NCBI GenBank assembly: GCA_001820485.1
Contig: MHPU01000039.1
Location: 30,904 to 94,903, forward strand
Length of the DNA: 64,000 nt
Direction: 5' to 3'
Origin: Candidatus Staskawiczbacteria bacterium RIFOXYD1_FULL_32_13
Lineage (GTDB): Bacteria > Patescibacteriota > Minisyncoccia > Minisyncoccales > Staskawiczbacteraceae
The position numbers were made by a program, and so were the translations under genes. This document shows positions 32,845 through 51,672 of this stretch, one piece after another (position 1 is the stretch's first letter; the number at the start of each line of letters is the position of its first letter). A model generated the notes under the pieces. That model saw only the letters and a list, made by a program, of their open reading frames with translations. It did no database searches and was not told the origin of the DNA.

Positions 32845-32851
32845 AACACTC

Positions 32852-32884
32852 GTCATTGCGAGGAGCAAAGCGACGAAGCAATCT
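32852..32884. repeat. Truncated copy of the GTCATTGCGAGG MITE-like repeat
   Basis: It reads GTCATTGCGAGGAGCAAAGCGACGAAGCAATCT, which is only the left arm. Confidence 0.55.
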
Positions 32885-32908
32885 AAACAGGGGTAAAACC
32901 CTGTTTTT
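32885..32908 (+). terminator. Rho-independent terminator after rplL
   Basis: The stem AAACAGGG/CCCTGTTT has a GTAAAA loop and is followed by TT. Confidence 0.65.
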
Positions 32909-33029
32909 GCTTGCAAAATTTTATAGTCGGAGTAACATTAACTAATATGACCAACGCACAACCGACATGGTGCCGTGTTGCGTCGCTGGCCAATGTCCTT
33001 TCTTTTAGGCATTTGCCTGGAGGGGTACG

Positions 33030-33263
33030 ATGGCCGATTTGGAATTTACTAAGAAAAATTTTCGGGCGTTGTATTGGCTGTGGAAAAACTACTTGTCTTC
33101 TGCTAAAGGAATGGCAACTGAAGTAGTTGAAGGGGCTGGGCGGTTGTATAGTGTTTTGATCTTTCAAATTCATTGTGAGGACAAAAACTCTGAATTTGAC
33201 AAGCCGATTTCCGATCGTGCACGGATGTTGTGGCAACAATTCTTGGCATATATCACTATTTGA
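33030..33263 (+). CDS. Hypothetical protein in GC-rich islet 4
   Basis: It is a 77-aa ORF in a roughly 45% GC block. GGAGG lies 6 nt upstream of the ATG. A hairpin GGGCTTTGCGGAGCCC plus a T-tract follows at 33290-33318. Confidence 0.4.
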   Translation: MADLEFTKKNFRALYWLWKNYLSSAKGMATEVVEGAGRLYSVLIFQIHCEDKNSEFDKPISDRARMLWQQFLAYITI

Positions 33264-33289
33264 CTTTCGTGATATTGCCAAGAAGGAAG

Positions 33290-33318
33290 AGGGCTTTGCG
33301 GAGCCCTTTTTGTTTTTT
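33290..33318 (+). terminator. Rho-independent terminator of the islet-4 ORF
   Basis: The stem GGGCTTTG/CGGAGCCC is followed by TTTTTGTTTTTT. Confidence 0.6.
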
Positions 33319-33342
33319 ATATTTTTTGGTAATATATAATAT

Positions 33343-34305
33343 ATGAAAGATGATATATATAATAATTTAAAATTAGATTTGCCAGAACTCAAGGAAGGCG
33401 TTTTGTTAAAAGATTATACAACTTTTAAAATTGGCGGTTTGGCCAAATATTTTTTTATTGCACATAGCAAAGAAATTTTAATAAAAGTAATAAAATTAGC
33501 AAAGACAAACAAAATTCCAATTTTTGTTTTAGGTGGTGGAAGCAATCTTTTAATATCTGATAAAGGGTTTAAGGGATTAGTTATAAAGTTAAAAGTTAAA
33601 AGTTATAAAGTAAATAAAAATAAAATTGTAGTTGATGCTGGGGTGGGTTTATCAAAATTAGTAAATTTAGTTTTAGAAAATAGTTTAACTGGAATGGATT
33701 GGGCTGCGGGGATTCCGGGGAGCACTGGTGGTGCAATTTATGGTAATGCTCAGGCATTTGGGGAAAAAATTTCAGATAATTTGATGGAAGTAGAATATCT
33801 TGATGTGAAAAGTTTAAAAATAAAAAAAGTATCTAAAAAACAGTGTAAATTTACCTTAAAAAATAGCATATTTAAAAAAAATAAAAATTTGATAGTTTTA
33901 TCTGCAACTTTTGATTTAAAGAAAGGAAATATTAATGAGATTCGTAAAAATGTATTAGAGCATATAAATTATAGAAAGAAAAATCATCCGATTAATTTTC
34001 CTTCAGCTGGTTCAGTTTTTGTAAATACTGAAACAAAAATAACTAATAAAAAATTGCTTGCAAAGTTTCCTGAATTAAAGTATTTTAATAGTAAGGGGGT
34101 AATTCCTTCAGGCTACTTAATTGAAAAGGTGGGGCTTTCCGGAAAACAAATTGGAGGAGCTAAGTTTTCTGATGTTCATGCAAATTTTATTGTAAACACG
34201 GGTAATGCGAAAGCACAAGATGTTTTAAAATTAATCAAATTAGCCAAAAAAAAAGTAAAAAAAATTTTTAATATTAATCTGGAAACAGAAATACAAATAT
34301 TATGA
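33343..34305 (+). CDS. murB: UDP-N-acetylenolpyruvoylglucosamine reductase
   Basis: The FAD-binding domain contains GGGSNLLISD, and the C-terminal MurB domain contains SAGSVF. Confidence 0.85.
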   Translation: MKDDIYNNLKLDLPELKEGVLLKDYTTFKIGGLAKYFFIAHSKEILIKVIKLAKTNKIPIFVLGGGSNLLISDKGFKGLVIKLKVKSYKVNKNKIVVDAGVGLSKLVNLVLENSLTGMDWAAGIPGSTGGAIYGNAQAFGEKISDNLMEVEYLDVKSLKIKKVSKKQCKFTLKNSIFKKNKNLIVLSATFDLKKGNINEIRKNVLEHINYRKKNHPINFPSAGSVFVNTETKITNKKLLAKFPELKYFNSKGVIPSGYLIEKVGLSGKQIGGAKFSDVHANFIVNTGNAKAQDVLKLIKLAKKKVKKIFNINLETEIQIL

Positions 34306-34682
34306 AAATAATAATTAAAACGAAGAATTTGGAATTGACGCCATCATTGGAAAATTATATTAATGAGAAAATTGGTAGTTTAGAAAAATTTATAAAAAAT
34401 TTGCAAAAAGAGGAAGAGGGGAAAACATTGTCAGAAATCTTTGTAGAAGTAGAGAAAGAGTCAAAGCATCATAGGCATGGCGATATTTTTAGAGCAACAG
34501 CACAAGTTATTCTTCCAGGTAAAAGTTTGATAGCTGAAGCTAAAGGAGAAGATTTGCTCTTAGTAATTGTAGAAGTAAAAGACGAACTTCAGCAGGAAAT
34601 TAAAAAATATAAACTAAAAAAAATGGATGCGAAAATAAAAGGTGGTAGGAAAGCAAAGGATCAATTAAAATCAGAAACATAA
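34302..34682 (+). CDS. hpf: Ribosome hibernation promoting factor / RaiA family
   Basis: The beta-alpha-beta-beta-beta-alpha pattern reads MKIIIKTKNLELTPSLENYINEKIGSLEKF...FRATAQVILPGKSLIAEA. Confidence 0.75.
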   Translation: MKIIIKTKNLELTPSLENYINEKIGSLEKFIKNLQKEEEGKTLSEIFVEVEKESKHHRHGDIFRATAQVILPGKSLIAEAKGEDLLLVIVEVKDELQQEIKKYKLKKMDAKIKGGRKAKDQLKSET

Positions 34683-34686
34683 AACA

Positions 34687-37152
34687 ATGTCAATTTTAAC
34701 AAAAATTTTTGGTGATCCAAATGAAAAGTATATAAAGAGTTTACAGCCAATTGTAGAAAAAATAAATTCTTTTGAAATAGAATTTTCAAAACTTTCATTA
34801 CAAGAAATTAAAGAAAAAACCTTTCGACTTCGCTCAGGGCTAGCAAGTGGGAAAACTTTAGACGATATTCTCCCAGAGGCTTTTGCTTTGGTTAGAGAAG
34901 CAGGAAAAAGAACTTTAAATCAAAGGCATTTTGATAGTCAATTAATTGGAGGAATTGTTTTACATCAAGGTAAAATTGCAGAAATGAGAACCGGAGAAGG
35001 TAAAACTTTGTCTGCTACTTTGCCAGCTTATTTAAATGCACTTTTAGGTAAAGGAGTTCATATTGTTACAGTTAACGAATATTTAGCAAAAAGAGATATG
35101 ATTTGGATGGGACAGATTTATAATGCATTAGGATTAACTGCAGGATGCATTACAAATTCAGGAGGTTTTATTTATGATGAAAACTATAAAAATGAAAACG
35201 AAAAAGATGCAAAGAGAGATATAGTGGGAGGATTTTTAGTGGTGGAAGATTTTTTAAAACCAGTTTCAAAAAAAGAAGCTTATAGTGCTGATATAACATA
35301 TGGAACTAATAATGAATTTGGTTTTGATTATTTAAGAGATAATATGGTTTTTGATTTAGAACAAAAGGCACAAAGAGATTTTAATTTTGCAATTGTGGAC
35401 GAAGTAGATTCAATTTTAATTGACGAAGCAAGAGTTCCTTTAATAATTTCTGGAGAAGCTGAGCCTGCAACTGAAAAATATTCATTATTTGCAAAAATTG
35501 TATCAAGTTTGGAAAAAGAAACAGATTATGTTTTAGATGAAAAATTAAAAACAGTCACTTTTACAGAAGAAGGTCAAAATAAAGTGGTAAATAAGTTGGG
35601 CCAAGATCCTTGGCAAGATAATGACATTACAGCTACTCATCAATTGGAATCAGCTTTAAGAGCTAAGGCTTTGTTTATTAAAGATAGAGATTATGTTGCA
35701 CAAAATGGCGAGATTTTAATTATTGATGAATTTACAGGAAGAATTTTGCCTGGTAGAAGATGGTCAGCTGGTTTGCATCAAGCAGTTGAAGCTAAGGAAG
35801 GAGTAAGAGTGCAACCCGAGTCTGTAACTTATGCCACAATAACTTTTCAAAATTATTTTCGCCTTTATAAAAAATTATCTGGAATGACAGGAACTGCTTT
35901 TACTTCAGCTGAAGAATTTGATAAAGTTTATAAATTAGAAGTAGCAATTGTGCCAACAAATAAAACTATTGTTAGAAAAGATTTGCCAGATAAAATTTTT
36001 AAATCTGAAGCTGGAAAATTTAAGGCAGTTGTAAGGGAAATAAAAGAATTAAATCAAAGGGGCCAACCAATTTTAGTTGGAACAAGATCTGTAGAAAGAA
36101 ATGAATATCTTGGAAGATTACTTGAAATGGAAGGAATTAAGCACGAAATTTTAAATGCCAAAAATCATCAAAGAGAAGGAGAAATAATTGCTCAAGCTGG
36201 CAGAAAAGGAGCTGTAACAATTGCTACAAATATGGCAGGTCGAGGGGTTGACATCATACTTGGTGGCAACCCCGTAGACCCTGAGCATAGTCGAAGGGTC
36301 CGTGAATTGGGAGGTTTACACGTTATGGGTACAGAAAGACACGAAGCTCGCAGAATTGATAATCAATTAAGGGGCAGGTCTGGTAGACAGGGAGATCCAG
36401 GAACTACTCAATTTTTTGTTTCTTTAGAAGATGATTTAATGCGTATTTTTGGAGGAGATAGAATAAAGAATTTAATGACCACTTTCAATGTAGCCGAAGA
36501 CGAACCAATTTCAGCTGGGATTTTGTCCGGTGCTTTAGAGTCAGCTCAAAGTAAAATAGAAGGTTTTAATTTTGATTCTCGCCATCATTTGCTTGAATAT
36601 GATGATGTAATGAATAAGCATAGAGAAATAATATATAAAAAAAGAAATGAATTTTTAGAAAAATCAGTATTGGAAGGCCCGTCCTTGCAACAATATGTTC
36701 TAGAGCTTGTAAAAAAAGCTGGGCACACAGAACAAGAATATTTAAATAAAGAAAAAGAATTAGGTGAGCAAAATATGAGGAATGTAGAGAAATTTGTGTG
36801 TTTAAAAGTTTTAGATACTTTATGGCAAGATCATTTAAGCAATATGGAACATATGAGAGATTCTGTAAGACTTAGAGCTTATGGTGGAAAAGATCCTTTA
36901 GTTGAGTATAAAAATGAGGGACACCGAATGTTTGGCGAACTATTAAAAGAAATGGATTTTGAAATAGCACAAGATATTATGAGTGCTGGTTTAACGAAGC
37001 CATCTCAACAGATTAATACAGATTTGAAAACAGATTTACACAGATCACAGACTGGCGGAAAACAAATCGGGCGGAACGATCCATGTCCGTGCGGAAGCGG
37101 AAAGAAATGGAAAAATTGCGGATTAATTAATGCCCCGGAGCACAAAAAATAA
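34687..37152 (+). CDS. secA: Preprotein translocase ATPase SecA
   Basis: The Walker A reads MRTGEGKT. A DEVDSILIDEARVPLIISG motif is present, and the C-terminal zinc-binding tail reads CPCGSGKKWKNC. Confidence 0.9.
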   Translation: MSILTKIFGDPNEKYIKSLQPIVEKINSFEIEFSKLSLQEIKEKTFRLRSGLASGKTLDDILPEAFALVREAGKRTLNQRHFDSQLIGGIVLHQGKIAEMRTGEGKTLSATLPAYLNALLGKGVHIVTVNEYLAKRDMIWMGQIYNALGLTAGCITNSGGFIYDENYKNENEKDAKRDIVGGFLVVEDFLKPVSKKEAYSADITYGTNNEFGFDYLRDNMVFDLEQKAQRDFNFAIVDEVDSILIDEARVPLIISGEAEPATEKYSLFAKIVSSLEKETDYVLDEKLKTVTFTEEGQNKVVNKLGQDPWQDNDITATHQLESALRAKALFIKDRDYVAQNGEILIIDEFTGRILPGRRWSAGLHQAVEAKEGVRVQPESVTYATITFQNYFRLYKKLSGMTGTAFTSAEEFDKVYKLEVAIVPTNKTIVRKDLPDKIFKSEAGKFKAVVREIKELNQRGQPILVGTRSVERNEYLGRLLEMEGIKHEILNAKNHQREGEIIAQAGRKGAVTIATNMAGRGVDIILGGNPVDPEHSRRVRELGGLHVMGTERHEARRIDNQLRGRSGRQGDPGTTQFFVSLEDDLMRIFGGDRIKNLMTTFNVAEDEPISAGILSGALESAQSKIEGFNFDSRHHLLEYDDVMNKHREIIYKKRNEFLEKSVLEGPSLQQYVLELVKKAGHTEQEYLNKEKELGEQNMRNVEKFVCLKVLDTLWQDHLSNMEHMRDSVRLRAYGGKDPLVEYKNEGHRMFGELLKEMDFEIAQDIMSAGLTKPSQQINTDLKTDLHRSQTGGKQIGRNDPCPCGSGKKWKNCGLINAPEHKK

Positions 37153-37228
37153 CTTTTTTGTAAAAGAAAACCCGGGCCTCGACGAATCAAGGCGCACGGG
37201 TTGAGTACTCGCGATGAGGTTGGTTTTC

Positions 37229-37636
37229 TCAGCACAGAACCAAAACATCGCCGGCTGAGAATCCAAAATCATCCATGTAGAATTGCCAGTCCTCGGGACC
37301 TTCGCCGACCATGGGCTTGGCCCATATTAGCGTGGGGACGCAATTGTCTCCGTCGGTGTAGTACCAGTGTTCCGGAAACACCAAAGTCTTTCCTCGTAGT
37401 TCCGTGGGGATCCTGTCTTTCTGTGTTAGCATGCTTCGGGCATGGCTAGCGCCAGTGCGTTTTCCCAGCTTACCGACGATTCCCACCACTTCCTGACTTT
37501 TCCCACTCTGTTCGATGGGGAAGAAATTGGGTCGGAATTCCTGACCCAACTCGGCCGGCACCTCTCCTTGGCAAACCCAGTCATCCCTGCGCGGTTCCCA
37601 CAAATCAGTCATTCGGAAAACCACATTGGTTTCCAT
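37229..37636 (-). CDS. Hypothetical protein in GC-rich islet 2
   Basis: It is a 135-aa ORF in a roughly 52% GC block. AAGGAG lies 6 nt upstream of the ATG. A minus-strand hairpin plus TTTTTT tail sits at 37153-37195. Confidence 0.4.
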   Translation of the reverse strand: METNVVFRMTDLWEPRRDDWVCQGEVPAELGQEFRPNFFPIEQSGKSQEVVGIVGKLGKRTGASHARSMLTQKDRIPTELRGKTLVFPEHWYYTDGDNCVPTLIWAKPMVGEGPEDWQFYMDDFGFSAGDVLVLC

Positions 37637-37718
37637 TTCGTTCTCCTTGCAATAGGGGGGGTAAAAACTTTAGCACAATTCTATAGTTTTATTATATCAT
37701 ATTATATAATCTTGTCAA

Positions 37719-38945
37719 GTGAAAAATGAAGAAATTTCAAAATCTAACACAAACAGAATAATAGCACATTTGGATATGGATGCATTTTTTGCGAGTATAG
37801 AAGAAGCAGATAGCCCAATTTTTAAAGGAAAACCAATTGCAGTGGGATCTGAGGCGCTAAATGGTAATGGAAGGGGGGTTGTTTCTACTGCAAATTATAA
37901 AGCTCGCGAATATGGTATTCATTCTGCTTTGCCCATTTCACAGGCATGGCAACTCTCACAAAAAGCCAAAAAAGAAGGCAAGGATGAAGTGATTTTTTTA
38001 CCAGTAGATATGGAAAGATATGAGCAAGTATCTTGTGGAATTTATGATATAATAAAAAAATACGCTAATGTTGTGGAACCAGCTAGCATTGATGAATTTT
38101 ATTTCGATTTAACACCCAGTTTGTCATTGCGAGGAGCGACCGAAGGGAGCGACGCGGCAATCCAGAGTAGTAGCACGAATTCTAGATTGCTACGTCGTCC
38201 TGCAAAGGCGGGACTCCTCGCAATGACAGGTGAGGACGATGAGTGGAAACAAGCAGAGAAAATTTGTTTGAAAATAAAAAAAGAAATAAAAGAAAAATTT
38301 AAAATTACTTGTTCTGTGGGCCTTGCTCCTAATAAATTAATTTCTAAAATTGCTGCTGGCAAGAAAAAGCCAGATGGATTTGTTATTGTGCGACAGGAAG
38401 AGGTAGAAGTTTTTCTAGAACCATTGTCAGTGCGTGAATTGCCGGGAGTAGGCCCTAAGACAGGGGAAGTTTTAAGAAAAAATGGCGTAGAAAAAATAAA
38501 AGATTTAAAAAAGTTTTCGTACGAGGATTTATATGATATACTTGGAAAATATGGATTAGATTTGTATTATAAAGCTAAAGGAATTGATGACTCAGAACTT
38601 ATTGAAAGTAGGGAGGTAAAATCTATTGGAGAACAAACAACTTTTGATAAGGACACTCAAGATGCAGTTTATATTGGAGATATTTTTGAAAAACTGTGTT
38701 CTGATGTATTTTTAAGATTTAAAGAATCAGGATTTAAAAGTTTTAAAACAATTGCAATTACTGTAAGATTTAAAGGATTTGAAACAAAAACTACAGCCAA
38801 GACTTTAAAAGAATCAATTAGTAGCGAGAAAATATTTAAATTAGAAGCTTTAAAACTTTTATTACCATATTTAGATAGCAGGAAAAATCCAAATAATAAA
38901 TTAATTAGATTAATTGGCGTTAGTATAAAAAATTTTAATAATTAA
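37719..38945 (+). CDS. dinB: DNA polymerase IV (Y-family) carrying an in-frame 35-aa MITE-derived insertion
   Basis: The N-terminus reads HLDMDAFFASIE. The catalytic SIDEFYFDLT segment is present, and the later motifs are intact. Codons 38123-38227 are the repeat element. Confidence 0.85.
   Translation: MKNEEISKSNTNRIIAHLDMDAFFASIEEADSPIFKGKPIAVGSEALNGNGRGVVSTANYKAREYGIHSALPISQAWQLSQKAKKEGKDEVIFLPVDMERYEQVSCGIYDIIKKYANVVEPASIDEFYFDLTPSLSLRGATEGSDAAIQSSSTNSRLLRRPAKAGLLAMTGEDDEWKQAEKICLKIKKEIKEKFKITCSVGLAPNKLISKIAAGKKKPDGFVIVRQEEVEVFLEPLSVRELPGVGPKTGEVLRKNGVEKIKDLKKFSYEDLYDILGKYGLDLYYKAKGIDDSELIESREVKSIGEQTTFDKDTQDAVYIGDIFEKLCSDVFLRFKESGFKSFKTIAITVRFKGFETKTTAKTLKESISSEKIFKLEALKLLLPYLDSRKNPNNKLIRLIGVSIKNFNN
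38123..38227. repeat. Complete 105-bp copy of the GTCATTGCGAGG...CCTCGCAATGAC MITE-like palindromic repeat, inside the dinB CDS
   Basis: The terminal inverted repeat is GTCATTGCGAGGAG...CTCCTCGCAATGAC. The internal arms GCGACGCGGCAATCCAGAG and CTAGATTGCTACGTCGTC are complementary. Confidence 0.7.
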
Positions 38946-38951
38946 AAACTT

Positions 38952-39833
38952 ATGAACAAAATTTTTTTAGGGATTTTATCAATAATTTTAATTGTTCTAG
39001 TTTTTGGAGCTGGAATTTATTTTAATAATGAAATTTATTCTTTTTTTGGTGGAATAAATAAAAATATTGAAGATTTTAAGAAAACCGAAATAGGAAATTT
39101 AATAAATCAAGTTGGCAATGAAGTTTTAAATCCCTCTCCTTTAAAAGTTAACAATCCATTCAAAAATGTTGTTTTAACAAGTGAAAAAGTATTTTTGGAA
39201 ACAAATATTCAAAGAAACATTAATGGATTTTTGCCACTTTCAAGAAATGCTGTTTTAGATAAATCAGCATTAGCCAAAGCCAATGATATGTTTAAAAATC
39301 AGTATTTTGAACACAATTCACCTTCGGGAGTGAGTCCTGCTGAATTAGTTAAAAGTTTTGGATATAATTATATAGTTACTGGAGAGAATTTGATTTTAGG
39401 GAATTTTGATTCCGAATATAAATTGGTTGAGGCTTGGATGAATAGCCCTGGGCATAGGGCAAATATTTTAAATAAAAGATATACAGAAGTGGGCATTGCA
39501 GTTGTAAAAGGAACTTATAATGGGCAAACAACTTGGATTGGGGTTCAAGAGTTTGGCTTGCCTTTGTCTGCGTGCACAAAACCAGATATTGATTTAAAAA
39601 ATCAAATTGATATATTAAAAGTAAAAATAGATAATTTATCATTGCAAATTGAACAAAAAAAACAAGAAATTGATAGCATAAGCTCAAACGCCAAAAAATT
39701 TAATATGTTAGCTAAAGAGTATAATGATTTGATTAGAGAGTATGAAAATTTAGCTAATCAAATAAAAATTTTAATTACAAAATATAATAATGAGGTTTCA
39801 ATATTTAATAATTGTGTTGCTGGTAGTAATTAA
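38952..39833 (+). CDS. CAP/SCP (PR-1-like) domain secreted protein with C-terminal coiled coil
   Basis: An N-terminal TM/signal is present. The CAP core reads NDMFKNQYFEHNSP...GENL...EAWMNSPGHRANIL...YTEVGIAVV. Confidence 0.65.
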   Translation: MNKIFLGILSIILIVLVFGAGIYFNNEIYSFFGGINKNIEDFKKTEIGNLINQVGNEVLNPSPLKVNNPFKNVVLTSEKVFLETNIQRNINGFLPLSRNAVLDKSALAKANDMFKNQYFEHNSPSGVSPAELVKSFGYNYIVTGENLILGNFDSEYKLVEAWMNSPGHRANILNKRYTEVGIAVVKGTYNGQTTWIGVQEFGLPLSACTKPDIDLKNQIDILKVKIDNLSLQIEQKKQEIDSISSNAKKFNMLAKEYNDLIREYENLANQIKILITKYNNEVSIFNNCVAGSN

Positions 39834-39839
39834 TAATTT

Positions 39840-40619
39840 ATGAAAATTTTTGCAGTTAAAACAAGGGCTATGTTACCACCAAAAGATGATTTGTTCTCCT
39901 TGATTAGGAGTAGTTTTCTATACAATAAAATAAAATTGAAAGAAAAATCAATAATTGTAATTACTTCAAAAATTGTTACTATTGCTCAAGGCAGATGTGT
40001 AAAAATAAATACAGATTTGAATAAAGAACATCAAAGAAAGGAGAAAGATAAATTGATAAAACAGGAAGCAGATTTTTTCATTGATCGTAAACACGTTCCG
40101 CATCAGTTAGTAACTTTAACAATCAAAAATAATATTTTAATTCCAACTTCTGGTATTGATGAAAGTAATGCAAATGGATATTATATTTTATGGCCTAAAA
40201 AACCATTTTTGGAAGCTAAAAAAATTCATGCATTTATAAAAAAAGAATTTGGTGTAAAAAAAGTTGGTATAATAATTTCTGATAGCCATACAACTCCCTT
40301 AAGAGCTGGAATTTCTGGAATTTCAATTGCTTATTTTGGCTTTTATCCATTAAGAGATTACAGAGGTAAAAAAGATATATTTGCAAGAGAGCTTAAAATG
40401 TCACAAACAAATATTGTAGATTCTTTAGCTGATATTGCAGTTTTTGCAATGGGTGAGGGAAATGAGCAAACTCCAATTGCAATTATTGAGGATGCCTTGG
40501 GAATTAAGTTTGGTTTTGATAGTGTAAAAAATGATCCTTTAATAATTGATAAAAAACAAGACATTTATTGGCCATTAGTAAATGGTGCAAAATGGAGTAA
40601 AGGTAAAAATAAAAAGTAG
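39840..40619 (+). CDS. CofE-like (F420-0:gamma-glutamyl ligase family) protein
   Basis: The family motifs present are VITSKIVTIAQGR, SGIDESNA and IIISDSHTTPLRAG. Confidence 0.55.
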   Translation: MKIFAVKTRAMLPPKDDLFSLIRSSFLYNKIKLKEKSIIVITSKIVTIAQGRCVKINTDLNKEHQRKEKDKLIKQEADFFIDRKHVPHQLVTLTIKNNILIPTSGIDESNANGYYILWPKKPFLEAKKIHAFIKKEFGVKKVGIIISDSHTTPLRAGISGISIAYFGFYPLRDYRGKKDIFARELKMSQTNIVDSLADIAVFAMGEGNEQTPIAIIEDALGIKFGFDSVKNDPLIIDKKQDIYWPLVNGAKWSKGKNKK

Positions 40620-40622
40620 AAT

Positions 40623-41159: not shown

Positions 41160-41173
41160 GTTGTCTAGAAAGG

Positions 41174-41201
41174 TTGACTATTTATAGAAAAAGAGTAAAA
41201 T
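41174..41201 (+). promoter_or_regulatory. Candidate sigma70 promoter upstream of secD
   Basis: The -35 TTGACT and the -10 TAAAAT are separated by a 16-nt spacer. Confidence 0.45.
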
Positions 41202-41248
41202 ATAACTATTATAAAAAATGAATAATAAAAATTAAAATTCAAACTTAC

Positions 41249-42670: not shown

Positions 42671-42701
42671 AATAATTTTGTAATTTGAAAAGTCTCTTTC
42701 T

Positions 42702-42782
42702 GTCATTGCGAGGAGCCCGCAGGCGACGTGGCAATTTAGAAGTTTGAGATTGCTTCGGCTATTGCGATAGCCTCGCAATGAC
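42702..42782. repeat. 81-bp copy of the MITE-like palindromic repeat
   Basis: It reads GTCATTGCGAGGAGCCCGCAGGCGACGTGGCAATTTAGAAG...CCTCGCAATGAC and lies directly after the secD stop. Confidence 0.65.
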
Positions 42783-42874
42783 GGAAGAGAACTAATTTTG
42801 TAAAAAAAGAGACGCTGGGTCGTCCGAGAAAAATTCGGATTACTCCCAGCGCCATGCTGACGAAAAAGCGGTTT

Positions 42875-43162
42875 TCACGCCGGGTATTCGTCAACTGGAC
42901 GTTGCCACGGTTCTCGCTCATTGCTTTTCGGTCGGCTACGATGATCATCGGTTCCCTGTTTTATTGGGTCGCTTTCTTCCTTTTCTTCCGTGGGTTGTTC
43001 GCCATCGAACAGCACAAGTGCTTCACGATTTGCCAGATCTACGGCGACTATTGAGACCGATCCGCCCCTCTTCAGTGCTTCGTTGAGTCTTCTCACAAAG
43101 CATTCACTCGAGCGACCAGTTTCCACTTCGCGAACTGTTGGTTCTATGAGTTCCACATACAT
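42875..43162 (-). CDS. Hypothetical protein in GC-rich islet 3
   Basis: The 95-aa ORF starts at MYVELI, with AAGGAG 6 nt upstream. A minus-strand hairpin (GCTGGG/CCCAGC) plus TTTTTTTACAAAA lies downstream at 42790-42850. Confidence 0.4.
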   Translation of the reverse strand: MYVELIEPTVREVETGRSSECFVRRLNEALKRGGSVSIVAVDLANREALVLFDGEQPTEEKEESDPIKQGTDDHRSRPKSNEREPWQRPVDEYPA

Positions 43163-43253
43163 AATCATCTCCTTAAAATCAGGGATTCGAAACCATAGAA
43201 ATAATATCAAAAATAAAATTAATTGTCAAATAAAATATTAAAAAAATAAAAAT

Positions 43254-44150: not shown

Positions 44151-44303
44151 AAATAGTTATTAACAGTTAAGTCTTCAAGACTCTTGACATATAAACTAAT
44201 ATATGCTAACATTATATATTAAACTATAAACTATTAATAGTGCTATATTTTTTAGCCTTAAAACCAACCTAAAAATTATCGCAATATTTAGTAACATATT
44301 AAA

Positions 44304-45332
44304 ATGACAAAATTAAATTACGCACAATTATATACAAAATTAACCAAAGGTCTTTCTCCAAAATCAAAGAATATTTTTGATAGACGTTTTGGAGTAAAAA
44401 ATGGTAAACCAGAAACCTTAGAATCAATAGGGGATTCTTTGCATATTACCAGAGAAAGAGTTAGGCAGATTGAAGAAGTTGGTTTTAACTTTGTAAGAAA
44501 AAATAATCAAGAAACTTTAGATAAAGTTTTTAAAGAATTTGTTGATTATTTTACCAAAAATGGTGGTTTAAGACGTGAGGATTTAGTACTTGAAGAATTA
44601 GGAGGTAAGAAAAATAAACCATTTGTTTTATTCTTTTTAACAATTTCTGATTTGTTTACTAGAGTTTGTGAGAAAAAAGACTTTTTCTATTTTTGGTCAA
44701 TAATTCCAGATGCTAAAAATAAAGTTAAAGAAACTTTAGATTCTCTAGTAAAAGATATTGATGTAGTTGGAAAAGTTATGGCTAGAAAAGATGTGATTGT
44801 TTCTTTTGCTTCAAAAAATAATTTAAGTAATGAGGCTGTTTCTTCTTATCTTGAAATTTCCAAAAATATTCAGACAAATAGAGAAGGGAAATTGGGTTTG
44901 GTTCACTGGCCAGAAATAAAACCAAGAGGTGTAAAGGATAGAGCATTTTTAACTTTTAAGAAACATGGCAAACCTTTGCATTTTACAGATGTAGCTAAAA
45001 TGATTGATAAATTGGAATATAATCAGCCAAATAAAAAAACTTATGCTCAAACAGTGCATAATGAACTGATTAAGGATTCAAGATTTGTTTTAGTGGGTAG
45101 GGGCACTTATGCTTTATCAGAATGGGGATATACTCCAGGAACAATTAAAGATGTTATTATTAAAGTATTGCAAACCAAAAATCAACCAACACATAAAGAT
45201 GAAATTGTTAAGGAAGTTTTGTCTCAAAGAATGGTTGCAAAAAATACAGTGCTTATGAATTTGAACATCAAAAATAATTTTGATAAAGATGATAAAGGAA
45301 ATTATTTTATCAGAAAAATCGAATCAGTGTAA
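44304..45332 (+). CDS. Sigma-70 region-4-like HTH protein with C-terminal HARE-HTH domain
   Basis: The N-terminal sigma70_r4-like segment reads TLESIGDSLHITRERVRQIEEVGF. The C-terminal segment LHFTDVAKMIDKL...TVHNELIKDSRFVLVGRGTYALSEWGY fits HARE-HTH. Confidence 0.5.
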   Translation: MTKLNYAQLYTKLTKGLSPKSKNIFDRRFGVKNGKPETLESIGDSLHITRERVRQIEEVGFNFVRKNNQETLDKVFKEFVDYFTKNGGLRREDLVLEELGGKKNKPFVLFFLTISDLFTRVCEKKDFFYFWSIIPDAKNKVKETLDSLVKDIDVVGKVMARKDVIVSFASKNNLSNEAVSSYLEISKNIQTNREGKLGLVHWPEIKPRGVKDRAFLTFKKHGKPLHFTDVAKMIDKLEYNQPNKKTYAQTVHNELIKDSRFVLVGRGTYALSEWGYTPGTIKDVIIKVLQTKNQPTHKDEIVKEVLSQRMVAKNTVLMNLNIKNNFDKDDKGNYFIRKIESV

Positions 45333-45516
45333 AAGTACATAAATAAAAGTGTGACTACTGTCACGTTTTTATTTTGTAAAAATAAATATCGCAAGAAAGT
45401 AGCGATCGCCATTTTTGTGCGATAATAATTTTTATTTTATAGCTTGTTTGTTGATTTTAAAATCTGTGAGGAGTATAATAATATAATGAATTTGAAATTT
45501 AAAATTTGAAATTTTA

Positions 45517-45735
45517 ATGAATTATTTTTTTATTGGTTTATATATTTTATTGGCACTTACAGCAGTTTATTATATTGTATTTTTTGCATTACTTTATTAT
45601 TGGCATGAGAAAAAAGCTACTTTTGTAGTAGTTCCTATAATCTTTACATTTTACTTTTTTGCAATAGGTTTTTTAATTGTTTCTATTATCTCATTAGCTA
45701 TTGAATATTTACCAAGTTTTTTAAATAATTTATAA
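45517..45735 (+). CDS. Small 2-TM membrane protein
   Basis: It is 72 aa and almost entirely hydrophobic. Confidence 0.35.
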   Translation: MNYFFIGLYILLALTAVYYIVFFALLYYWHEKKATFVVVPIIFTFYFFAIGFLIVSIISLAIEYLPSFLNNL

Positions 45736-45753
45736 AATTATTTTTTTAAAAAA

Positions 45754-47154
45754 ATGGCAAGCAAAATTTACAAAACATATTTTTTCTTTATGCCTTGGGC
45801 AAGGAAGGCATTTTGGGATCCTTTTTGGTGGGCGATTTTATTTGTAGTAATTTTGTTTATTCCTTTTTTAAGACCTTGGGGATGGTTTTTTCTTCCAATG
45901 ATGTTAATTGTGCAACTAAAAGAACTTTATCTTTGGTGGATAATGTGGGATTTTACTTATGCAAAATTCAAATGGGTAGTAATTGAAATGATTCCACCAA
46001 AAGAAGTTTTGGCTCCGTTTAAAGCTATGGAAGATGTTTTTACTAGTCTTTGGCCAATATATGATTCTGGTAATTGGCGTGAGCAGTGGTGTGAGGGAGA
46101 ATTTGCTGAATCAGCATATTGGTTTTCTTGGGAAATTGTAAGTGCTGAAGGATCGGTCCATTTTTATTTAAGATGTCTTGCTCAGCATAGAAGGACTATA
46201 GAATCAATTATTTATGGTCATTATCCGGAAATAGAAATGCGTGAAGTGCCTGATTACTTAAAAGCTATTCCGCAAGATATACCCAACCAAGAGTGGGATT
46301 TGTATGGAGAAGATTGGATGTTTGAAAAAATAGATTGTTATCCTATTAGAACTTATGAAAAGTTTTTTGAGCCACAAGGCGAAAGGATTTCAGCAGAGGA
46401 AAAAAGAATAGATCCAATGGCCTCCTTACTTGAAGGGCTTTCTAGATTAGGTCCAGGTGAGCATTTTTGGATTCAATTTATTACAACTCCAGTTGTTGAT
46501 TCTGAAGTTGGACTTAATGCAATAGCAAAAAAAGAAATTGATAGAATTGCGAGGCGACCTGTTAAAAAAGAGAAAACATTTCTGCAAGATATAGGAGATT
46601 TGTTATATTACTTGATTATGGGACCTACAAAAGAGGGTAGTGGCGAAAAAGCAACTTATAAATTTCTCCCAAGAGTAATGGAGGATGAAGGTGATGATAA
46701 TGAGCTTATGTTAACTCCTGGAGAAAAAGAAGTTTTACTTGGTATTGAAGATAAAATGAAAAAGCCAATTTTTAAATGTTCTGTGAGAGGTGCTTATGTA
46801 GCTAAAAGGGAGAATTGGAGCGGGGCAAGTAAAAATGCTGGGAGAGGTTATTTTGGGCATTTTAAAACAATGCATTTAAATGCTCTAAGATATACTGGTG
46901 ATACAAGACCAAAGACTCATTATCTTTTTAGAAAAAGAAGAGCATATTTTAGAGCAAGAAAAATGTTTAGAAATATTGTTCGTCGTTTTCCTGCAATGTA
47001 TCCAGATATGAAAGCATATACAATACTTTTAAATTCTGAAGAATTGGCAACATTATTTCACTTTCCAAATAAACTTACAGGACTTGTTTCTCCATCAGTG
47101 GCAAGGGTGGAATCAAAGAGAGGTGGACCTCCAGAAAATTTGCCAATAGAATAA
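45754..47154 (+). CDS. Membrane-anchored hypothetical protein (2 N-terminal TM helices and a ~400-aa soluble domain)
   Basis: The N-terminus is rich in W/F with two TM helices, and the remainder is basic and aromatic with no known motif. It is the first gene of the zinc-ribbon paralog locus. Confidence 0.5.
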   Translation: MASKIYKTYFFFMPWARKAFWDPFWWAILFVVILFIPFLRPWGWFFLPMMLIVQLKELYLWWIMWDFTYAKFKWVVIEMIPPKEVLAPFKAMEDVFTSLWPIYDSGNWREQWCEGEFAESAYWFSWEIVSAEGSVHFYLRCLAQHRRTIESIIYGHYPEIEMREVPDYLKAIPQDIPNQEWDLYGEDWMFEKIDCYPIRTYEKFFEPQGERISAEEKRIDPMASLLEGLSRLGPGEHFWIQFITTPVVDSEVGLNAIAKKEIDRIARRPVKKEKTFLQDIGDLLYYLIMGPTKEGSGEKATYKFLPRVMEDEGDDNELMLTPGEKEVLLGIEDKMKKPIFKCSVRGAYVAKRENWSGASKNAGRGYFGHFKTMHLNALRYTGDTRPKTHYLFRKRRAYFRARKMFRNIVRRFPAMYPDMKAYTILLNSEELATLFHFPNKLTGLVSPSVARVESKRGGPPENLPIE

Positions 47155-47179
47155 AAAGCTATGTAATCATAAGTAAAAT

Positions 47180-47284
47180 CAGTGTCATTGCGAGCCCCGC
47201 TATAGCGGGGCGTGGCAATCTAGAGTTTGCATATAAAATTCTGGATTGCCACGCTCGCCTGCAGGCTCGCTCGCAATGACACTG
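47180..47284. repeat. 105-bp copy of the MITE-like palindromic repeat (extended TIR CAGTGTCATTGCGAG...CTCGCAATGACACTG)
   Basis: It lies between the 466-aa gene and paralog P1. The internal arms CGTGGCAATCTAGAG and CTGGATTGCCACG pair with each other. Confidence 0.7.
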
Positions 47285-47315
47285 CTACTATTGTTAAAAT
47301 AATTATTTAATTTAT

Positions 47316-49049
47316 ATGCAAAGCGAAACAAAAACACATTCGACAAGCTCAGTGCAAGCTTGTCAAAATTGCAAAAATGACTTTACCATAGAGCCTGATG
47401 ATTTTGTATTTTATGAAAAAATGAAAGTCCCAGCTCCTACTTTTTGTCCGGAGTGTAGGATTATAAGAAGAATGACTTGGAGAAATGAGCGCACACTTTA
47501 TCATAGAAAGTGCGATGCCACTGGAAAAAATATTATTACAATGTTTGCTCCAGAACAGCCGGTTGTTGTTTATGAAAGGGATTATTGGTGGAGTGATTCT
47601 TGGGATCAGCTAGCTTCAGGTCAAGATTATGATTTTTCAAAACCATTTTTTCAGCAATTCCGCGAGCTTTTTGAAAAAGCTCCACTTTCTAATCTTGCTA
47701 ATACTAATATTGTAAATTCTGATTACTCAAATCATAGTTTGAATCTGAAAAATTGTTATCTTTTTTATGCTGGCATGAGATGCGAAGATATGTTATATTC
47801 TACTGGAGCTATGGATTGTAAAAATTCTATTGATCTATATAATGTGGGAAATTTAATACAATGTTACGACGATACTTTGTGTGGAGATCTAAATCGCGTT
47901 TCTTTTTCATATGATAGCGACGAAAGCGTAAATTGTGCATTTTTACATGCGTGCAAAAATATGATGGATTCTTTGGGATGTATAAATTTGCGTAATAAAT
48001 CAAATTGCATTTTTAATCAGCAATATACCAAAGAAGAATATGCAAAAGAACGCGCCAAATACGATTTTGGTAGTTATAAAAATCTTGAGGGATTTAAGAA
48101 AAAATTTGTAGAGTTTAAAAAGCAATATCCGCGACGCCATGGTTTTATTCATAAATGTGCAAATACAATTGGAGACAATATCATAAATTGCAAAAATATT
48201 TATATGGGCTTTGATATTTTTGGAGATGCTCAAGACAGTAAGTACGTTATTCATGGCGCAGAATTTAATAATATTTATGATGGATATGGAATTGGTGCAA
48301 CTCATAGTAACTCCTATGAAATTGTAGACACGGGCGATAATGCCACACTTAATCGGTTTGCTGTTTTTACTCATTCATGTCTAGACACACATTATACTTA
48401 CGCCTGTAAAAATTCCCAAAACTTATTTGGTTGTGTGGGGCTTCGCAGTAAAAGATATTGCATTTTAAATAAACAATATACCAAAGAAGAATATGAGACT
48501 CTGGTGCCAAAAATTATTAATCATATGAATGAAATGCCCTATATTGATGCAAAAGGTAGAGTTTATAAGTATGGCGAGTTTTTCCCAACAGAACTTTCAC
48601 CTTTTGCTTACAATGAAACTATTGCTCAAGAATATTACTCAAAAACTAAGGAAGATGTTTTAGAATCTGGTTTTAGGTGGAGAGAGCCAGAAACAAAAAA
48701 CTATAACATAACCTTAAAACCGCAAGATTTACCAGATCACATAAAGGACGTAACAGATGATATTTTAAATCAAGTAATAGCTTGTGAGCATGAAGGTAAA
48801 TGTAATCACCAATGTATGGGAGCTTTCAAAATTATTGCTTCTGAACTTGCATTTTACCGTGCAATGAATTTGGCTTTGCCAAGGTTGTGTTCTAATTGTA
48901 GGCACTATGCCAGGCTAGCTCAGCGCACGCCGTTTAAGTTGTGGGATAGAAATTGCGCAAAATGTGGAAAAGAAATTAAAACTTCTTATGCACCAGAAAG
49001 GCTAGAAATTATATATTGTGAAAGTTGTTATAATAATGAAGTAGCGTAA
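47316..49049 (+). CDS. Zinc-ribbon-rich paralog P1 (577 aa), unknown function
   Basis: The N-terminal ribbon reads CQNCKNDFTIEPDDFVFYEKMKVPAPTFCPECRIIRR. There are internal duplicated Cys-rich units (...C.NLRNK.NCIFNQQYTKEEY / ...FGCVGLRSKRYCILNKQYTKEEY). The C-terminal ribbons read CSNCRHY...CAKCGKEIKTSYAPERLEIIYCESCYNNEVA. Confidence 0.6.
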   Translation: MQSETKTHSTSSVQACQNCKNDFTIEPDDFVFYEKMKVPAPTFCPECRIIRRMTWRNERTLYHRKCDATGKNIITMFAPEQPVVVYERDYWWSDSWDQLASGQDYDFSKPFFQQFRELFEKAPLSNLANTNIVNSDYSNHSLNLKNCYLFYAGMRCEDMLYSTGAMDCKNSIDLYNVGNLIQCYDDTLCGDLNRVSFSYDSDESVNCAFLHACKNMMDSLGCINLRNKSNCIFNQQYTKEEYAKERAKYDFGSYKNLEGFKKKFVEFKKQYPRRHGFIHKCANTIGDNIINCKNIYMGFDIFGDAQDSKYVIHGAEFNNIYDGYGIGATHSNSYEIVDTGDNATLNRFAVFTHSCLDTHYTYACKNSQNLFGCVGLRSKRYCILNKQYTKEEYETLVPKIINHMNEMPYIDAKGRVYKYGEFFPTELSPFAYNETIAQEYYSKTKEDVLESGFRWREPETKNYNITLKPQDLPDHIKDVTDDILNQVIACEHEGKCNHQCMGAFKIIASELAFYRAMNLALPRLCSNCRHYARLAQRTPFKLWDRNCAKCGKEIKTSYAPERLEIIYCESCYNNEVA

Positions 49050-49061
49050 AAATAAAAAAAT

Positions 49062-51563
49062 ATGGCAAAAGATATAACTTATATCGCTCAAACAAATTTT
49101 AGAGGAGCTAATCAGAAATTTGGAATTAGAAGAACTGACAGACGTCAGCATATGTATGTGATTGGAAAAACTGGAACTGGTAAAACTCAATTTCTAAAAA
49201 ATATGGCTTTGCAAGATGTAGAAAATGGCGAAGGTCTTGCAGTTATAGATCCTCATGGGGAATTTGTTGAAGAAATTTTAGAAAGCATTCCAAGACACAG
49301 AATGAAAGATGTGGTTTATTTTAATCCTGCAGATATGGATTATCCGGTAAGTTTTAATATTATGGATGTGCAAGACCCAAGATATAAGCATTTGATTGCT
49401 TCTGGTTTAATCGGTATTTTCACTAAGATTTGGGCAAATGTTTGGTCAGCTCGTATGGAATATATTTTAGCAAATAGTATCTTAGCTTTATTAGATACCC
49501 CAGGAACCACTCTTTTGGGTATACCAAGAATGCTGGTAGATAGAGATTATAGACAGAAAATTATAAATAATTTACAAGATCCAGTTGTAAAATCATTTTG
49601 GATTAATGAATACGAAGAATGGGAATCAAGGTACAGAAATGAAGCCATAGCTCCTGTGCAAAACAAAGTGGGGCAGTTTTTAAATGTTTCTTTTGTAAGA
49701 AATATTGTAGGGCAAGCAAAAAATACCATAGATATTGAAGATATAATGAACAACGGAAAAATTTTATTAGTTAATGTTTCAAAAGGAAGAATTGGAGAAG
49801 ATAACTCAGCAATTTTAGGAGCAATGATTATAACAAAAATACAATTATCAGCTATGGAACGTGTAAGAATTCCTGAAGGCGATAGAAGAGATTTTTATTT
49901 GTATGTTGATGAATTCCAGAATTTTGCTACTGATTCATTTCGTAATATTTTGTCTGAGGCTAGAAAATATAGGTTAAATTTAATTATGGCGCATCAATAT
50001 ATTGGCCAATTAGTTACAGACAAAAATACTGCTGTAAGAGATGCTGTTTTTGGAAACGTGGGGACAGAGGTTTCTTTTAGAGTCGGAGCTGAAGATGCTG
50101 AATTTTTAGAAAAGGAATTTACTCCAGAATTTTTACAGGATGATTTTGTGCGCTTAGCAAATCGAGATACTTATATAAAACTTATGATAGGAGGTATCAC
50201 TTCAAGGCCATTTTCTGCTAAAACTATTACTATACCTGCAATTCCTAAAGACGACATAAAGCGAAATGAATTGATTAATCTTACAAGAGAAAAATATGCT
50301 CGTACTAAGCAAGCAGTTGAAGATGAAATTAACCGCTGGGCTGCTAACTTGGATGTTTTAAGCAAAGGTGCTGTACCTGTTTCGTGGCAAAATAATCAAA
50401 AGCAAGTGCAAGGTCATAAACAACAAGATGGAACAATGCTTTATGATGCTGTATGTTCTAGTTGTGGTAAAAAAACGAAAGTTGTTTTTGAACCTACTTC
50501 AGGTAAACCTGTTTATTGTAAAACCTGTTTTAAGAATAAGAAACCCGACAAAAGCCAAAGGCATTTTGACGAGCCCGCCACAATTCCCCAACAAAAGCAA
50601 GAGCATTTTGATGGGGATTTAGGCAGGGATGAGTCAGATAGCGCTTTGGCAAGTTTAGGGATAGAGTTTGGTTCATCAAAAATAGTAAAAAAAGTGGAGC
50701 AAAGTCGACCCCAGCAAAAACCCTTCGACTCTGCTCAGGGCAAGCCTCAGCAAATTAGTAATCAAAATAAAGTTTCAAATATAGAAAATAAATTATCAGC
50801 AAAGCCTCAGGTTCGAGAATCAGCTAAAGTTGAAAATATTGATTTTGCTCATCAAAAATATAATACAGAAAGGGATAATGGTTATAGACCGATGCAAAAT
50901 AATACAAAAAGAGAAATAAATTTGGCAGAATTGAGAAAAGTGCTTGCAGAATCCTTGGAAAAAGAGGAGAAAACCGACAAAAGCCCTAAAGGGTATTTTG
51001 ACGAGTCCGCCACAATGCCAGCTGAGCGGGCTTTAGGCGGGGAAGAAAAAATAAAGCAAGAAAATAAGATTGAGAAAACAGAAACACCACCACAACCTGA
51101 AGTTATTTTGCCTGTCATTACTGCGGAAGCAGGAATCCAGAGTGAAGTTAAAAAATCCTGGATTTCCAATCGGGCTGAGAATGATACTGAAAATAAAGAA
51201 GTAAAAGAAGTAAATATAAAAGAAGAAGAAAAAAAATCAGAGGTACAAGAAGTCAAACTTTTAGAAAACCCATTAGAATTAAAACCTGAGTTACAACCAC
51301 AGAAGCAGAAAGTTGTTGTACCCGTCATTCTCGCAAAAGTAGAAATTCAGAGTGAAATTCAAAAACCTTTAATTCTTGATCAAGTTGGGAATGACAATAG
51401 AGAAGAAAAAAAGACTGAAAGTTCTGATGACGAGCTTCAAAAAAGAATTGCATTGGAAAAAATGGCAGATGAGGCAATGAATATGATGGCAATTGGAAAT
51501 GATGATGATAAGAAACAATCAAAAAAAGGAGTAATAAATCCTGGTGAAACAATAAAGTTTTAA
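49062..51563 (+). CDS. VirD4/TraD/TraG-like (T4CP-like, FtsK-HerA superfamily) P-loop ATPase A with a low-complexity repeat tail and a paralog-type zinc ribbon
   Basis: The Walker A is VIGKTGTGKTQ, the Walker B LYVDEFQNF, and MAHQYIGQL is also present. At aa ~465-495 the ribbon CSSCGKKTKVVFEPTSGKPVYCKTCFKN appears. The C-terminal ~300 aa contain imperfect repeats (VVPVILAKVEIQSEIQK / ILPVITAEAGIQSEVKK). Confidence 0.65.
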   Translation: MAKDITYIAQTNFRGANQKFGIRRTDRRQHMYVIGKTGTGKTQFLKNMALQDVENGEGLAVIDPHGEFVEEILESIPRHRMKDVVYFNPADMDYPVSFNIMDVQDPRYKHLIASGLIGIFTKIWANVWSARMEYILANSILALLDTPGTTLLGIPRMLVDRDYRQKIINNLQDPVVKSFWINEYEEWESRYRNEAIAPVQNKVGQFLNVSFVRNIVGQAKNTIDIEDIMNNGKILLVNVSKGRIGEDNSAILGAMIITKIQLSAMERVRIPEGDRRDFYLYVDEFQNFATDSFRNILSEARKYRLNLIMAHQYIGQLVTDKNTAVRDAVFGNVGTEVSFRVGAEDAEFLEKEFTPEFLQDDFVRLANRDTYIKLMIGGITSRPFSAKTITIPAIPKDDIKRNELINLTREKYARTKQAVEDEINRWAANLDVLSKGAVPVSWQNNQKQVQGHKQQDGTMLYDAVCSSCGKKTKVVFEPTSGKPVYCKTCFKNKKPDKSQRHFDEPATIPQQKQEHFDGDLGRDESDSALASLGIEFGSSKIVKKVEQSRPQQKPFDSAQGKPQQISNQNKVSNIENKLSAKPQVRESAKVENIDFAHQKYNTERDNGYRPMQNNTKREINLAELRKVLAESLEKEEKTDKSPKGYFDESATMPAERALGGEEKIKQENKIEKTETPPQPEVILPVITAEAGIQSEVKKSWISNRAENDTENKEVKEVNIKEEEKKSEVQEVKLLENPLELKPELQPQKQKVVVPVILAKVEIQSEIQKPLILDQVGNDNREEKKTESSDDELQKRIALEKMADEAMNMMAIGNDDDKKQSKKGVINPGETIKF

Positions 51564-51588
51564 AAAGTTAAGGGTTGGCATATTTAAC

Positions 51589-51672
51589 GTCATTGTGAGG
51601 AGGTTTACAAACCGACGAAGCAATCTCAACGACTAGATTGCCACGCTCGCTTGTGGGCTCGCTCGCAATGAC
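51589..51672. repeat. 84-bp copy of the MITE-like palindromic repeat (variant TIR GTCATTGTGAGG)
   Basis: It reads GTCATTGTGAGGAGG...GACGAAGCAATCTCAAC...CTAGATTGCCACGCTCGC...GCTCGCAATGAC and overlaps the 5' end of cutA. Confidence 0.65.

Follow-up and report, generated by a model that had tools for sequence, protein, structure and literature searches.

What are the palindromic repeats that recur along a gene array of Candidatus Staskawiczbacteria bacterium RIFOXYD1_FULL_32_13, a bacterium of the candidate phyla radiation (CPR)? The stretch considered here, hereafter the window, comprises 64,000 nucleotides of contig MHPU01000039.1 (positions 30,904 to 94,903 of the forward strand). A preliminary description of its letters had recognized five copies of a repeat that it called MITE/REP-like (miniature inverted-repeat transposable element; repetitive extragenic palindrome), with terminators, small RNA (sRNA) genes and recombination hotspots as conceivable roles. 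Our analysis indicates that the copies are probably REPs fitting most features of the CGTC-tagged superfamily, and that they would be non-autonomous, mostly selfish DNA.

A scan with the core motif GTCATTGCGAGG, allowing at most one mismatch, gave nine matches in the window where 0.05 were expected, a number that none of 100 shuffles reached. The matches, at 32852(+), 38123(+)/38216-38227(-), 42702(+)/42771-42782(-), 47184(+)/47269-47280(-) and 51589(+)/51661-51672(-), form four inverted pairs and one lone half unit (32852), so that the five copies reported before were all recovered; they fall between 32.8 and 51.7 kb of the window, and a looser scan with three mismatches allowed added none across the 64 kb. 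Each copy also contains the inner arms CGACGNNGCAATC with their complement, in agreement with the terminal inverted repeats and internal arms described earlier, and the GC content is indeed far above the background (0.52-0.56 in the full elements, which measure 83-107 bp, and 0.49 in the lone unit, compared with 0.313 in the window). When the contig flanks were covered as well (~9 kb upstream, L266, and ~7.5 kb downstream, L267; ~81 kb in total), they added one singleton, at 2405-2455 of L266, upstream of the window. The contig thus holds four head-to-head dimers and two singletons, or 10 units, with no tail-to-tail or tandem pair in window or flanks.

The gene array is co-directional, and within it five of the six copies on the contig begin 5-30 nt past a stop codon. 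The singleton in L266 starts 5 nt past the prfA stop and the one in the window 5-6 nt past the rplL stop (32844); the 99-nt dimer stands 28 nt past the stop of a 466-aa gene (47154) and 34 nt before a gene for a 577-aa paralog (47316), and the 86-nt dimer, 24 nt past the stop of a TrwB-like ATPase gene (51563), ends immediately ahead of the in-frame ATG (51674) of a CutA1-family open reading frame (ORF). With 5, 30, 28 and 24 nt for rplL, secD, the 466-aa gene and the ATPase gene, the placement of four copies right after stop codons was correctly noted before; the fifth, missed at that time as intragenic, lies in frame within dinB (Table 1).

Table 1. Repeat copies and associated features of the locus, in window positions; junctions are compared with L241, the syntenic contig of a close relative.
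Feature	Position	Strand	Remarks
Single REP unit (rplL singleton)	32851..32885	+	CGTC tag, ATTGC-GAG, variable segment GAGCAAAGCGAC, GAA-GCAAT, tail CTA
Head-to-head REP dimer, 107 nt (dinB dimer)	38122..38228	+	in frame within dinB
Head-to-head REP dimer, 83 nt (secD dimer)	42701..42783	+	TGTC and CGTC tags; 30 nt past secD stop (42670)
Head-to-head REP dimer, 99 nt	47183..47281	+	most regular four-way fold
Head-to-head REP dimer, 86 nt	51588..51673	+	CGTC and TGTC tags; left core with one mismatch (ATTGTGAG)
dinB, Y-family DNA polymerase IV, 408 aa	37719..38945	+	intact; IMS, HHH, IMS_C domains all present
Junction rplL/murB			~+400 nt with a 77-aa ORF
Junction secD/secF			~+490 nt GC-rich islet
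Junction 466-aa gene/ATPase			1.77-kb 577-aa paralog gene

All units follow one layout, [C/T]GTC - ATTGC - GAG - variable segment - G(AA/TG/CG) - GCAAT - C(C/T)A, and because lone units exist (the rplL singleton and that of L266), the half rather than the dimer is the basic unit. A CGTC or TGTC tag is carried by all nine window units and by the L266 unit, and all nine window half units have the ATTGC...GCAAT arms and the 3-nt tail (CTA, CCA, TTA or CTC); the L266 unit likewise folds with ATTGC/GCAAT around a nested hairpin. The variable segments differ in all ten units (for example CCCCGCTATAGCGGGG, GCTATCGCAATAGCC and GAGTCCCGCCTTTGCAGGACGAC), and eight of the ten form a hairpin of 3-8 bp, with a summed minimum free energy of -47.7 kcal/mol against -20.1 kcal/mol for shuffles. 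Pairing that is kept despite differing nested sequences could reflect selection; intrastrand template switching, which corrects quasi-palindromes, could be an alternative source of it. Within a pair the tags point outward, and base pairs form between GTCATTGCGAG and the CTCGCAATGAC of the other unit as well as between the GCAATC(C/T)A arms on either side of a short spacer (in the dinB dimer the left unit occupies 38122-38164, the spacer 38165-38181 and the right unit, on the minus strand, 38182-38228). In single-stranded form the dimer adopts a fold with an outer stem of 11 bp, a long central hairpin and two small hairpins at the sides.

The same core motifs occur far outside the CPR. Using as pattern only the two outer 10-mers, 55-85 nt apart, we scanned IMG/VR and the GTDB species genomes and found the dimer at at least 120 loci in each. 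The GTDB matches listed include many from Bradyrhizobium, others from further Alphaproteobacteria, Gammaproteobacteria, Planctomycetota, Chloroflexota, Desulfobacterota, Ignavibacteriota and Bacteroidota (Mucilaginibacter, Pedobacter, Flavobacterium), and three from other Patescibacteria; the viral-contig loci listed have a GC content of 0.36-0.72, and the viral contigs with the element carry largely related gene transfer agent (GTA) or HK97-like structural clusters of high-GC hosts. The 578 half units among these matches keep the layout: CG stands right before TCATTGCGAG in 374 of them and TG in 177, 565 have GAA, GTG or GCG as the triplet ahead of GCAAT, the tails comprise 279 CCA, 144 CTC and 40 CCC, and the nested segment ranges from 4 to 43 nt. 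The inner motif GAAGCAATCC is conserved as well, though it lies outside the search pattern. The preliminary description had allowed for a merely local duplication; with copies abundant in many phyla and a further one located 9 kb upstream in the contig, this does not hold. Among GenBank phages the unit was found only in prophage records of Helicobacter canis (BK070053-BK070057), in which up to eight places match the half unit and which would extend the family to Campylobacterota prophages.

This anatomy agrees in most features with the CGTC-tagged REPs defined by Di Nocera, De Gregorio and Rocco (2013, BMC Genomics 14:522; PMC3733652). The survey describes a terminal unpaired CGTC tag (with variants TGTC and CCTC), stems whose arms start with a complementary A-T at positions 1 and 2 and a CCA-like 3-nt tail, units that mostly form head-to-head dimers with 20-100 bp spacers near the 3' ends of ORFs, intragenic copies in frame, above all in genes for replication and repair, and no transposase associated with them. 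On our contig we find the same unpaired CGTC or TGTC tag, AT-starting arms and CCA-type tail, head-to-head dimers with the tags outside and a short, variable spacer, positions within ~30 nt downstream of ORFs, an in-frame copy in a repair gene, and no flanking transposase. The closest family is CGTC-3, which, back-translated from the peptide VIAGLDPAIH of the supplement, reads CGTC ATTGCCGGG CTTGA CCCGGCAAT CCA and has the frame CGTCATTGC...GCAATCCA in common with our units. There are also clear differences: the published stem is continuous, whereas here the ATTGC/GCAAT stem spans 5 bp, beyond which lie the unpaired GAG/GNN and a nested hairpin free in sequence and length, and at the dimer level, unlike in the CGTC families, GAG pairs with the partner's CTC to give the 11-bp outer stem and the four-way fold. 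Peptides of the present type (SLRAKRSNP, LAMT) are not in the survey's intragenic table, and the CPR is not among the five phyla that it covers. The elements are best filed as a sub-type of the CGTC-tagged superfamily, new for the CPR. In the paper library searched, none was listed that combines 'extragenic palindromic' with CPR terms; a search by the literal CATTGCGAG returned only unrelated primer matches, and one by the encoded peptides only unrelated text.

The 107-nt dimer of dinB lies in frame directly after the catalytic DEFYFDL strand and encodes approximately residues 135-170, SLRGATEGSDAAIQSSSTNSRLLRRPAKAGLLAMT, of a protein that is identical to one of Ca. Staskawiczbacteria RIFOXYB2_FULL_32. 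At this site 97 of the 120 closest homologs have a loop of 8 residues, and 3 of the 120 have REP-encoded loops of 37-47 aa, two of which are P0002 (37 aa, SLRERSEATDVAIP...APRND) and P0009 (41 aa, SLRGARKQRSNP...GLAMT); several other homologs have loops of 10-16 residues that resemble remnants (e.g., SSLRGES). All three carriers belong to one 8-member clade of a neighbour-joining tree from which the loop was left out, the other five members having loops of 6, 8, 10, 10 and 15 residues. For P0002 and P0009 the argument is based on protein sequences, and a single old insertion that later eroded imprecisely would be its most economical reading.

All three carriers keep the residues that the core encodes (SLR, AI/SNP, LAMT/PRND) but differ in the middle. 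In the AlphaFold model of the dinB product (mean pLDDT, the model's confidence score, 87), residues 140-169 score below 50 and have no secondary structure, so that the loop is predicted to be disordered. Because the core residues are kept in a loop that is predicted to be disordered, we infer that what conserves the core acts at the nucleic acid rather than at the protein. The dinB copy retained its core motifs while the loop diverged or eroded in sister lineages, which points to a constraint or conversion at the DNA/RNA level rather than at the protein level. Another dinB homolog, P0010, has a different insertion of ~25 aa at another dinB site (...DSRFSPRFAVEVGRGNDAKE...), which looks to be encoded by a CGTC-1-type REP (ATTCCCGC stem); if this is true, REPs of more than one type have entered the dinB genes of the CPR.

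In-frame insertion is also seen in the palindromic elements of Rickettsia, which lie in coding genes of a small, AT-rich, host-dependent bacterium and leave an intact protein with an insert in a surface loop. They differ from ours in stem type (ATTCC... there, ATTGCGAG here), and our contig has only one intragenic copy in 81 kb, most copies being intergenic. The REPIN-RAYT systems (E. coli BIMEs, Pseudomonas REPINs) have in common with our elements inverted REP doublets that form long hairpins, a conserved tetranucleotide beside the hairpin, an intergenic location downstream of genes, and remnant-like singletons; their tag is GTAG instead of CGTC/TGTC, and they have a single-copy RAYT gene (a Y1 HUH transposase) with the same REPs on its flanks, whereas no RAYT was found in the 268 records searched here. 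REPIN families have been described as lineage-specific and vertically inherited, in contrast to the present core sequence, which is common to several phyla. In Neisseria, dRS3 has the core ATTCCC-N8-GGGAAT and is largely clustered in mosaics. The dRS3 elements and Neisseria intergenic mosaic elements (NIMEs) share with ours the layout CGTC-AT...stem...AT-CCA and a tie to variable intergenic regions, although our copies are isolated dimers. The survey itself assigns Rickettsia RPE-4 to CGTC-4, and RPE-6 as well as dRS3 to CGTC-1 (PMC3733652).

How such elements move bears on the MITE half of the original label. A classical MITE would be a deletion derivative of an insertion sequence (IS), with the termini GTCATTGCGAG bound in trans by a DDE transposase and with target-site duplications, and it would agree with the perfect 11-bp inverted repeats at the termini, with presence or absence varying between close relatives, and with the size of 83-107 bp, which is typical of small MITEs. 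However, where a junction can be set against an empty site, no duplication of the target is seen, and no parent element was found, nor does any transposase family recur within 4-10 kb of ~270 copies (240 loci from the matches listed). Moreover, lone half units have the full internal organization, and the succession of tag, stem, hairpin, stem and tail is repeated in each half, which is the architecture of REPs and not of IS ends. All-against-all clustering of 8,431 ORFs from the 240 loci was also tried as a way to an element-linked protein and yielded only phage structural genes (GTA/HK97-like) and generic families (ABC ATPases, response regulators, dehydrogenases). A hidden Markov model (HMM) for RAYT/TIRYT, built from the alignment in PMC3733652, recovered 14 of 14 positive controls and matched none of 13,279 ORFs from 268 records; there is no RAYT gene in the ~81 kb of the contig or in the other loci retrieved. 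The REP-like part of the label is therefore upheld by the anatomy and the classical MITE is not, for want of a target duplication, a recurrent transposase and a RAYT-like protein; we regard it as very improbable.

A second possibility is that the elements serve the host as RNA, either as 3' structures that end or stabilize mRNAs, as insulators between cistrons or as sRNAs, and are kept by selection on structure. The location of five of the six copies just past stop codons in a co-directional array speaks for this, and so do the nested hairpins, which still pair despite their sequence differences. The folds are very stable: the four full copies have RNA folding energies of -37.7 to -63.9 kcal/mol (z -4.9 to -10.1 versus shuffles), with DNA folding at z -4.5 to -8.8. 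The single long hairpin that had been drawn for each copy is borne out as to strength, but for two copies not as to shape: the dinB dimer and the 99-nt dimer fold into a branched structure of an outer stem, a small hairpin, the long central hairpin and a second small hairpin. The survey also argues that many REPs are transcribed (PMC3733652).

On the other side, no copy is followed by a T-run, and a separate intrinsic-terminator hairpin lies at ~32887-32912, directly 3' of the rplL singleton. Because T-runs are missing and rplL keeps its own canonical terminator after the REP, the copies are not canonical terminators, contrary to one of the roles first proposed. The sRNA role fares no better: no promoter of their own was seen for the elements, and no Rfam family matches them. 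At the gathering threshold, applied to the whole window, Rfam gave no match on the elements, and in E-value mode, applied to two copies, only sub-threshold matches appeared, mostly to models of miRNA-precursor hairpins; Rfam thus gives no sign that the elements are fragments of a known structured RNA, which the preliminary description had named as an alternative. A hammerhead-like or other ribozyme reading of the GAG-hairpin-CGAA part was rejected, with invariant ribozyme cores absent and Rfam silent. In addition, the close relative L241, whose genes flanking the copy sites are 84-91% identical at the nucleotide level, does without the copies; G-T and A-C mismatches in the central stem of the dinB copy are balanced (judged by eye), with no strand-specific G-U signature; and a terminator would do harm at the site of that copy, which is within coding sequence. 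We therefore think it unlikely that service to the host as RNA explains the elements.

Comparison with L241 links the copies with variable gene junctions. The two contigs align from rplJ to the ATPase gene in blocks of mostly 80-91% nucleotide identity, and no REP unit is found in 21 kb of L241. Nor is there one in 24 more distant syntenic loci, obtained by a metagenome scan with the 466-aa protein; since all of them are without the element, they are useless as filled/empty site pairs. Within the shared block the window has extra DNA relative to L241 at exactly 3 of 14 core gene junctions (Table 1), and each of the three has a REP at its border with the upstream gene, a coincidence with a chance of 1/364 by our own count, in which junctions are taken as equivalent.

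These observations raise the possibility that the palindromes are landing pads for recombination or integration, at which foreign DNA such as GC-rich orphan genes and paralogs enters, and that the recombination hotspots proposed earlier did seed the islets. The dRS3 repeats of Neisseria serve phages as integration sites, and site-specific insertion elements likewise make use of them and of other REPs. That dRS3 is a CGTC-1 element (PMC3733652) would agree with this possibility, as does the presence of a REP at the edge of every window-specific insertion in the shared block. However, L241 has extra genes of its own and comparable GC-rich minus-strand islets at three other junctions, none with a REP, showing that REPs are not needed for such insertions. 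Each insertion has a REP at one edge only, with no second or degenerate copy at the other, and no integrase or IS110-type gene was found in the insertions. The link between REPs and insertions may be indirect: secD overlaps secF in L241, and in this compact genome there may be room for a REP only once another insertion has opened a junction. On balance, we consider a role of the elements as landing pads improbable.

The extra DNA and the GC-rich islets have some features of their own. The ~400 nt between the rplL singleton and murB that are absent from L241 contain the 77-aa ORF (33030-33263, +), which has its own terminator-like hairpin (33286-33311). Two GC-rich islets lie on the minus strand at 37150-37720 and 42800-43230 (GC 0.48-0.59 in a genome of 0.31), with near-consensus sigma70-like promoters at 37718-37691 (12/12 with TG) and 43229-43201 (11/12); each has an AAGGAG and AUG start and a small ORF, of 135 and 111 aa, respectively. 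Two copies had been said to abut such islets, and only the secD dimer truly does: directly to its right is the minus-strand orphan gene unit with an ORF at 43210-42875 and a terminator-like hairpin at 42825-42810. Pfam and PHROG gave no match for the islet ORFs and NCBIfam one sub-threshold match, to the 111-aa ORF, and the 135-aa product is an ORFan that matches only itself among 5.8 billion proteins. As noncoding RNAs the islets were rejected (fold z only -1.6 and -0.8), and the weak z-scores together with the AAGGAG and AUG make them probably small orphan protein genes. L241 has unrelated GC-rich minus-strand ORFs, one of them at the same secA/dinB junction.

With small orphan genes nearby, attC sites of integrons, or another kind of structured recombination site already known, also come to mind. 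As imperfect palindromes, the elements fall in the size class of 57-141 bp, and the orphan gene unit 43229-42810 (minus) ends beside a copy. Yet the RYYYAAC and GTTRRRY core sites are absent from the element sequences, which already contradicts this reading, neither a cassette array nor an integron integrase is seen among the annotated neighbours, the 577-aa gene comes after the element instead of before it, and Rfam returned only spurious hairpin matches, so that practically no likelihood is left for it.

Returning to the CGTC-tagged REPs as the probable identity of the elements, their behaviour can be outlined by analogy. In the REP/RAYT and IS200/IS605 systems the tetranucleotide next to the hairpin is the cleavage site. 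By analogy with these systems, an enzyme with its gene elsewhere probably acts on our elements in trans and copies or moves them in the form of single-stranded hairpins; protein recognition would fall to the conserved tag and to the ATTGC/GCAAT arms, and the nested hairpin would need only to pair. Copies would persist where they do the least harm, past stop codons and in permissive protein loops. The post-stop copies would be transcribed together with the upstream gene and, like the REPs of E. coli, may give protection to mRNA 3' ends. A more far-reaching possibility is that the ATTGCGAG-type REP is a single, horizontally spreading, pan-bacterial replicator without a dedicated transposase, mobilized or resolved by a host-universal enzyme that acts on its cruciform or hairpin. 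RuvC prefers to cleave at (A/T)TT(G/C). The ATT(G/C) that all CGTC families keep at the foot of the stem resembles that preference. Still, we regard the pan-bacterial replicator as a doubtful proposal. If true, it would mean that the element reaches reduced CPR genomes as well as prophage and GTA regions, and that accessory genes enter compact genomes at junctions which its copies mark or create.

Several points weigh against the assignment to the CGTC-tagged REPs. The stem of 8-9 bp and the loop of 4-5 nt given for the CGTC families in Table 1 of PMC3733652 are not those of our units, and the rplL singleton alone folds weakly (DNA z -0.9). No recent identical copies, no donor enzyme and no target duplication were found, and the suggested stabilization of mRNAs draws on general background about E. 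coli REPs. Outside the window, the prevalence of head-to-head dimers is subject to ascertainment bias because the scans were seeded with the dimer pattern. As to novelty, the type may already be included in the survey, for example as its 'Bradyrhizobium CGTC-1 with loops of different length', and the survey states that bulged types may have escaped it (PMC3733652).

Some further features of the contig deserve mention. The right terminus of the 99-nt dimer gives a -35-like ATGACA with AATAAT 16 nt on (47276-47303, +), before the 577-aa gene, so TGTC-tagged ends could donate -35 boxes to downstream genes. That gene, absent from L241, is the first of five paralogs of ~577-587 aa (47316, 52331, ~55200, ~58450 and 60533) with repeated CxxC segments and a weak zf_Tbcl_2 match, which are interleaved with TrwB/TraG-like coupling-protein ATPases (49062-51563 and 62447-63964); in the annotation of L267 the paralogs have genes of the AbiEii and MerR/HTH families between them, and a Fic-family gene follows just past the 3' end of the window. 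The region 47316-62290 looks like an expanding accessory or conjugation-related region. At 14841-21380 of L266 (approximately 5.7-12.2 kb of the window), a large SNF2/PLD-type helicase-nuclease gene beside an MmeI/Eco57I-like methyltransferase-restriction gene probably constitutes a defence locus. A LOOT RNA (RF03000) matches at full length at 17020-17140 (+), with 91.5 bits against a gathering score of 46.4.

CGTC-tagged REPs are widespread. The ATTGCGAG core is almost unchanged across many phyla, prophage-like contigs and a CPR genome of 31% GC, which is hard to reconcile with a purely vertical, lineage-specific evolution of REPs. The interest of the present case is moderate and lies in this cross-phylum identity of the core, in the long-lived in-frame dinB copy and in the coincidence with junctions of accessory DNA. 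Current views are not overturned; rather, a known class is extended to a new phylum, in a streamlined genome where copies are few, their contexts are simple, and comparison with close relatives can reveal gain and loss, which makes it a tractable case for population-level tests.

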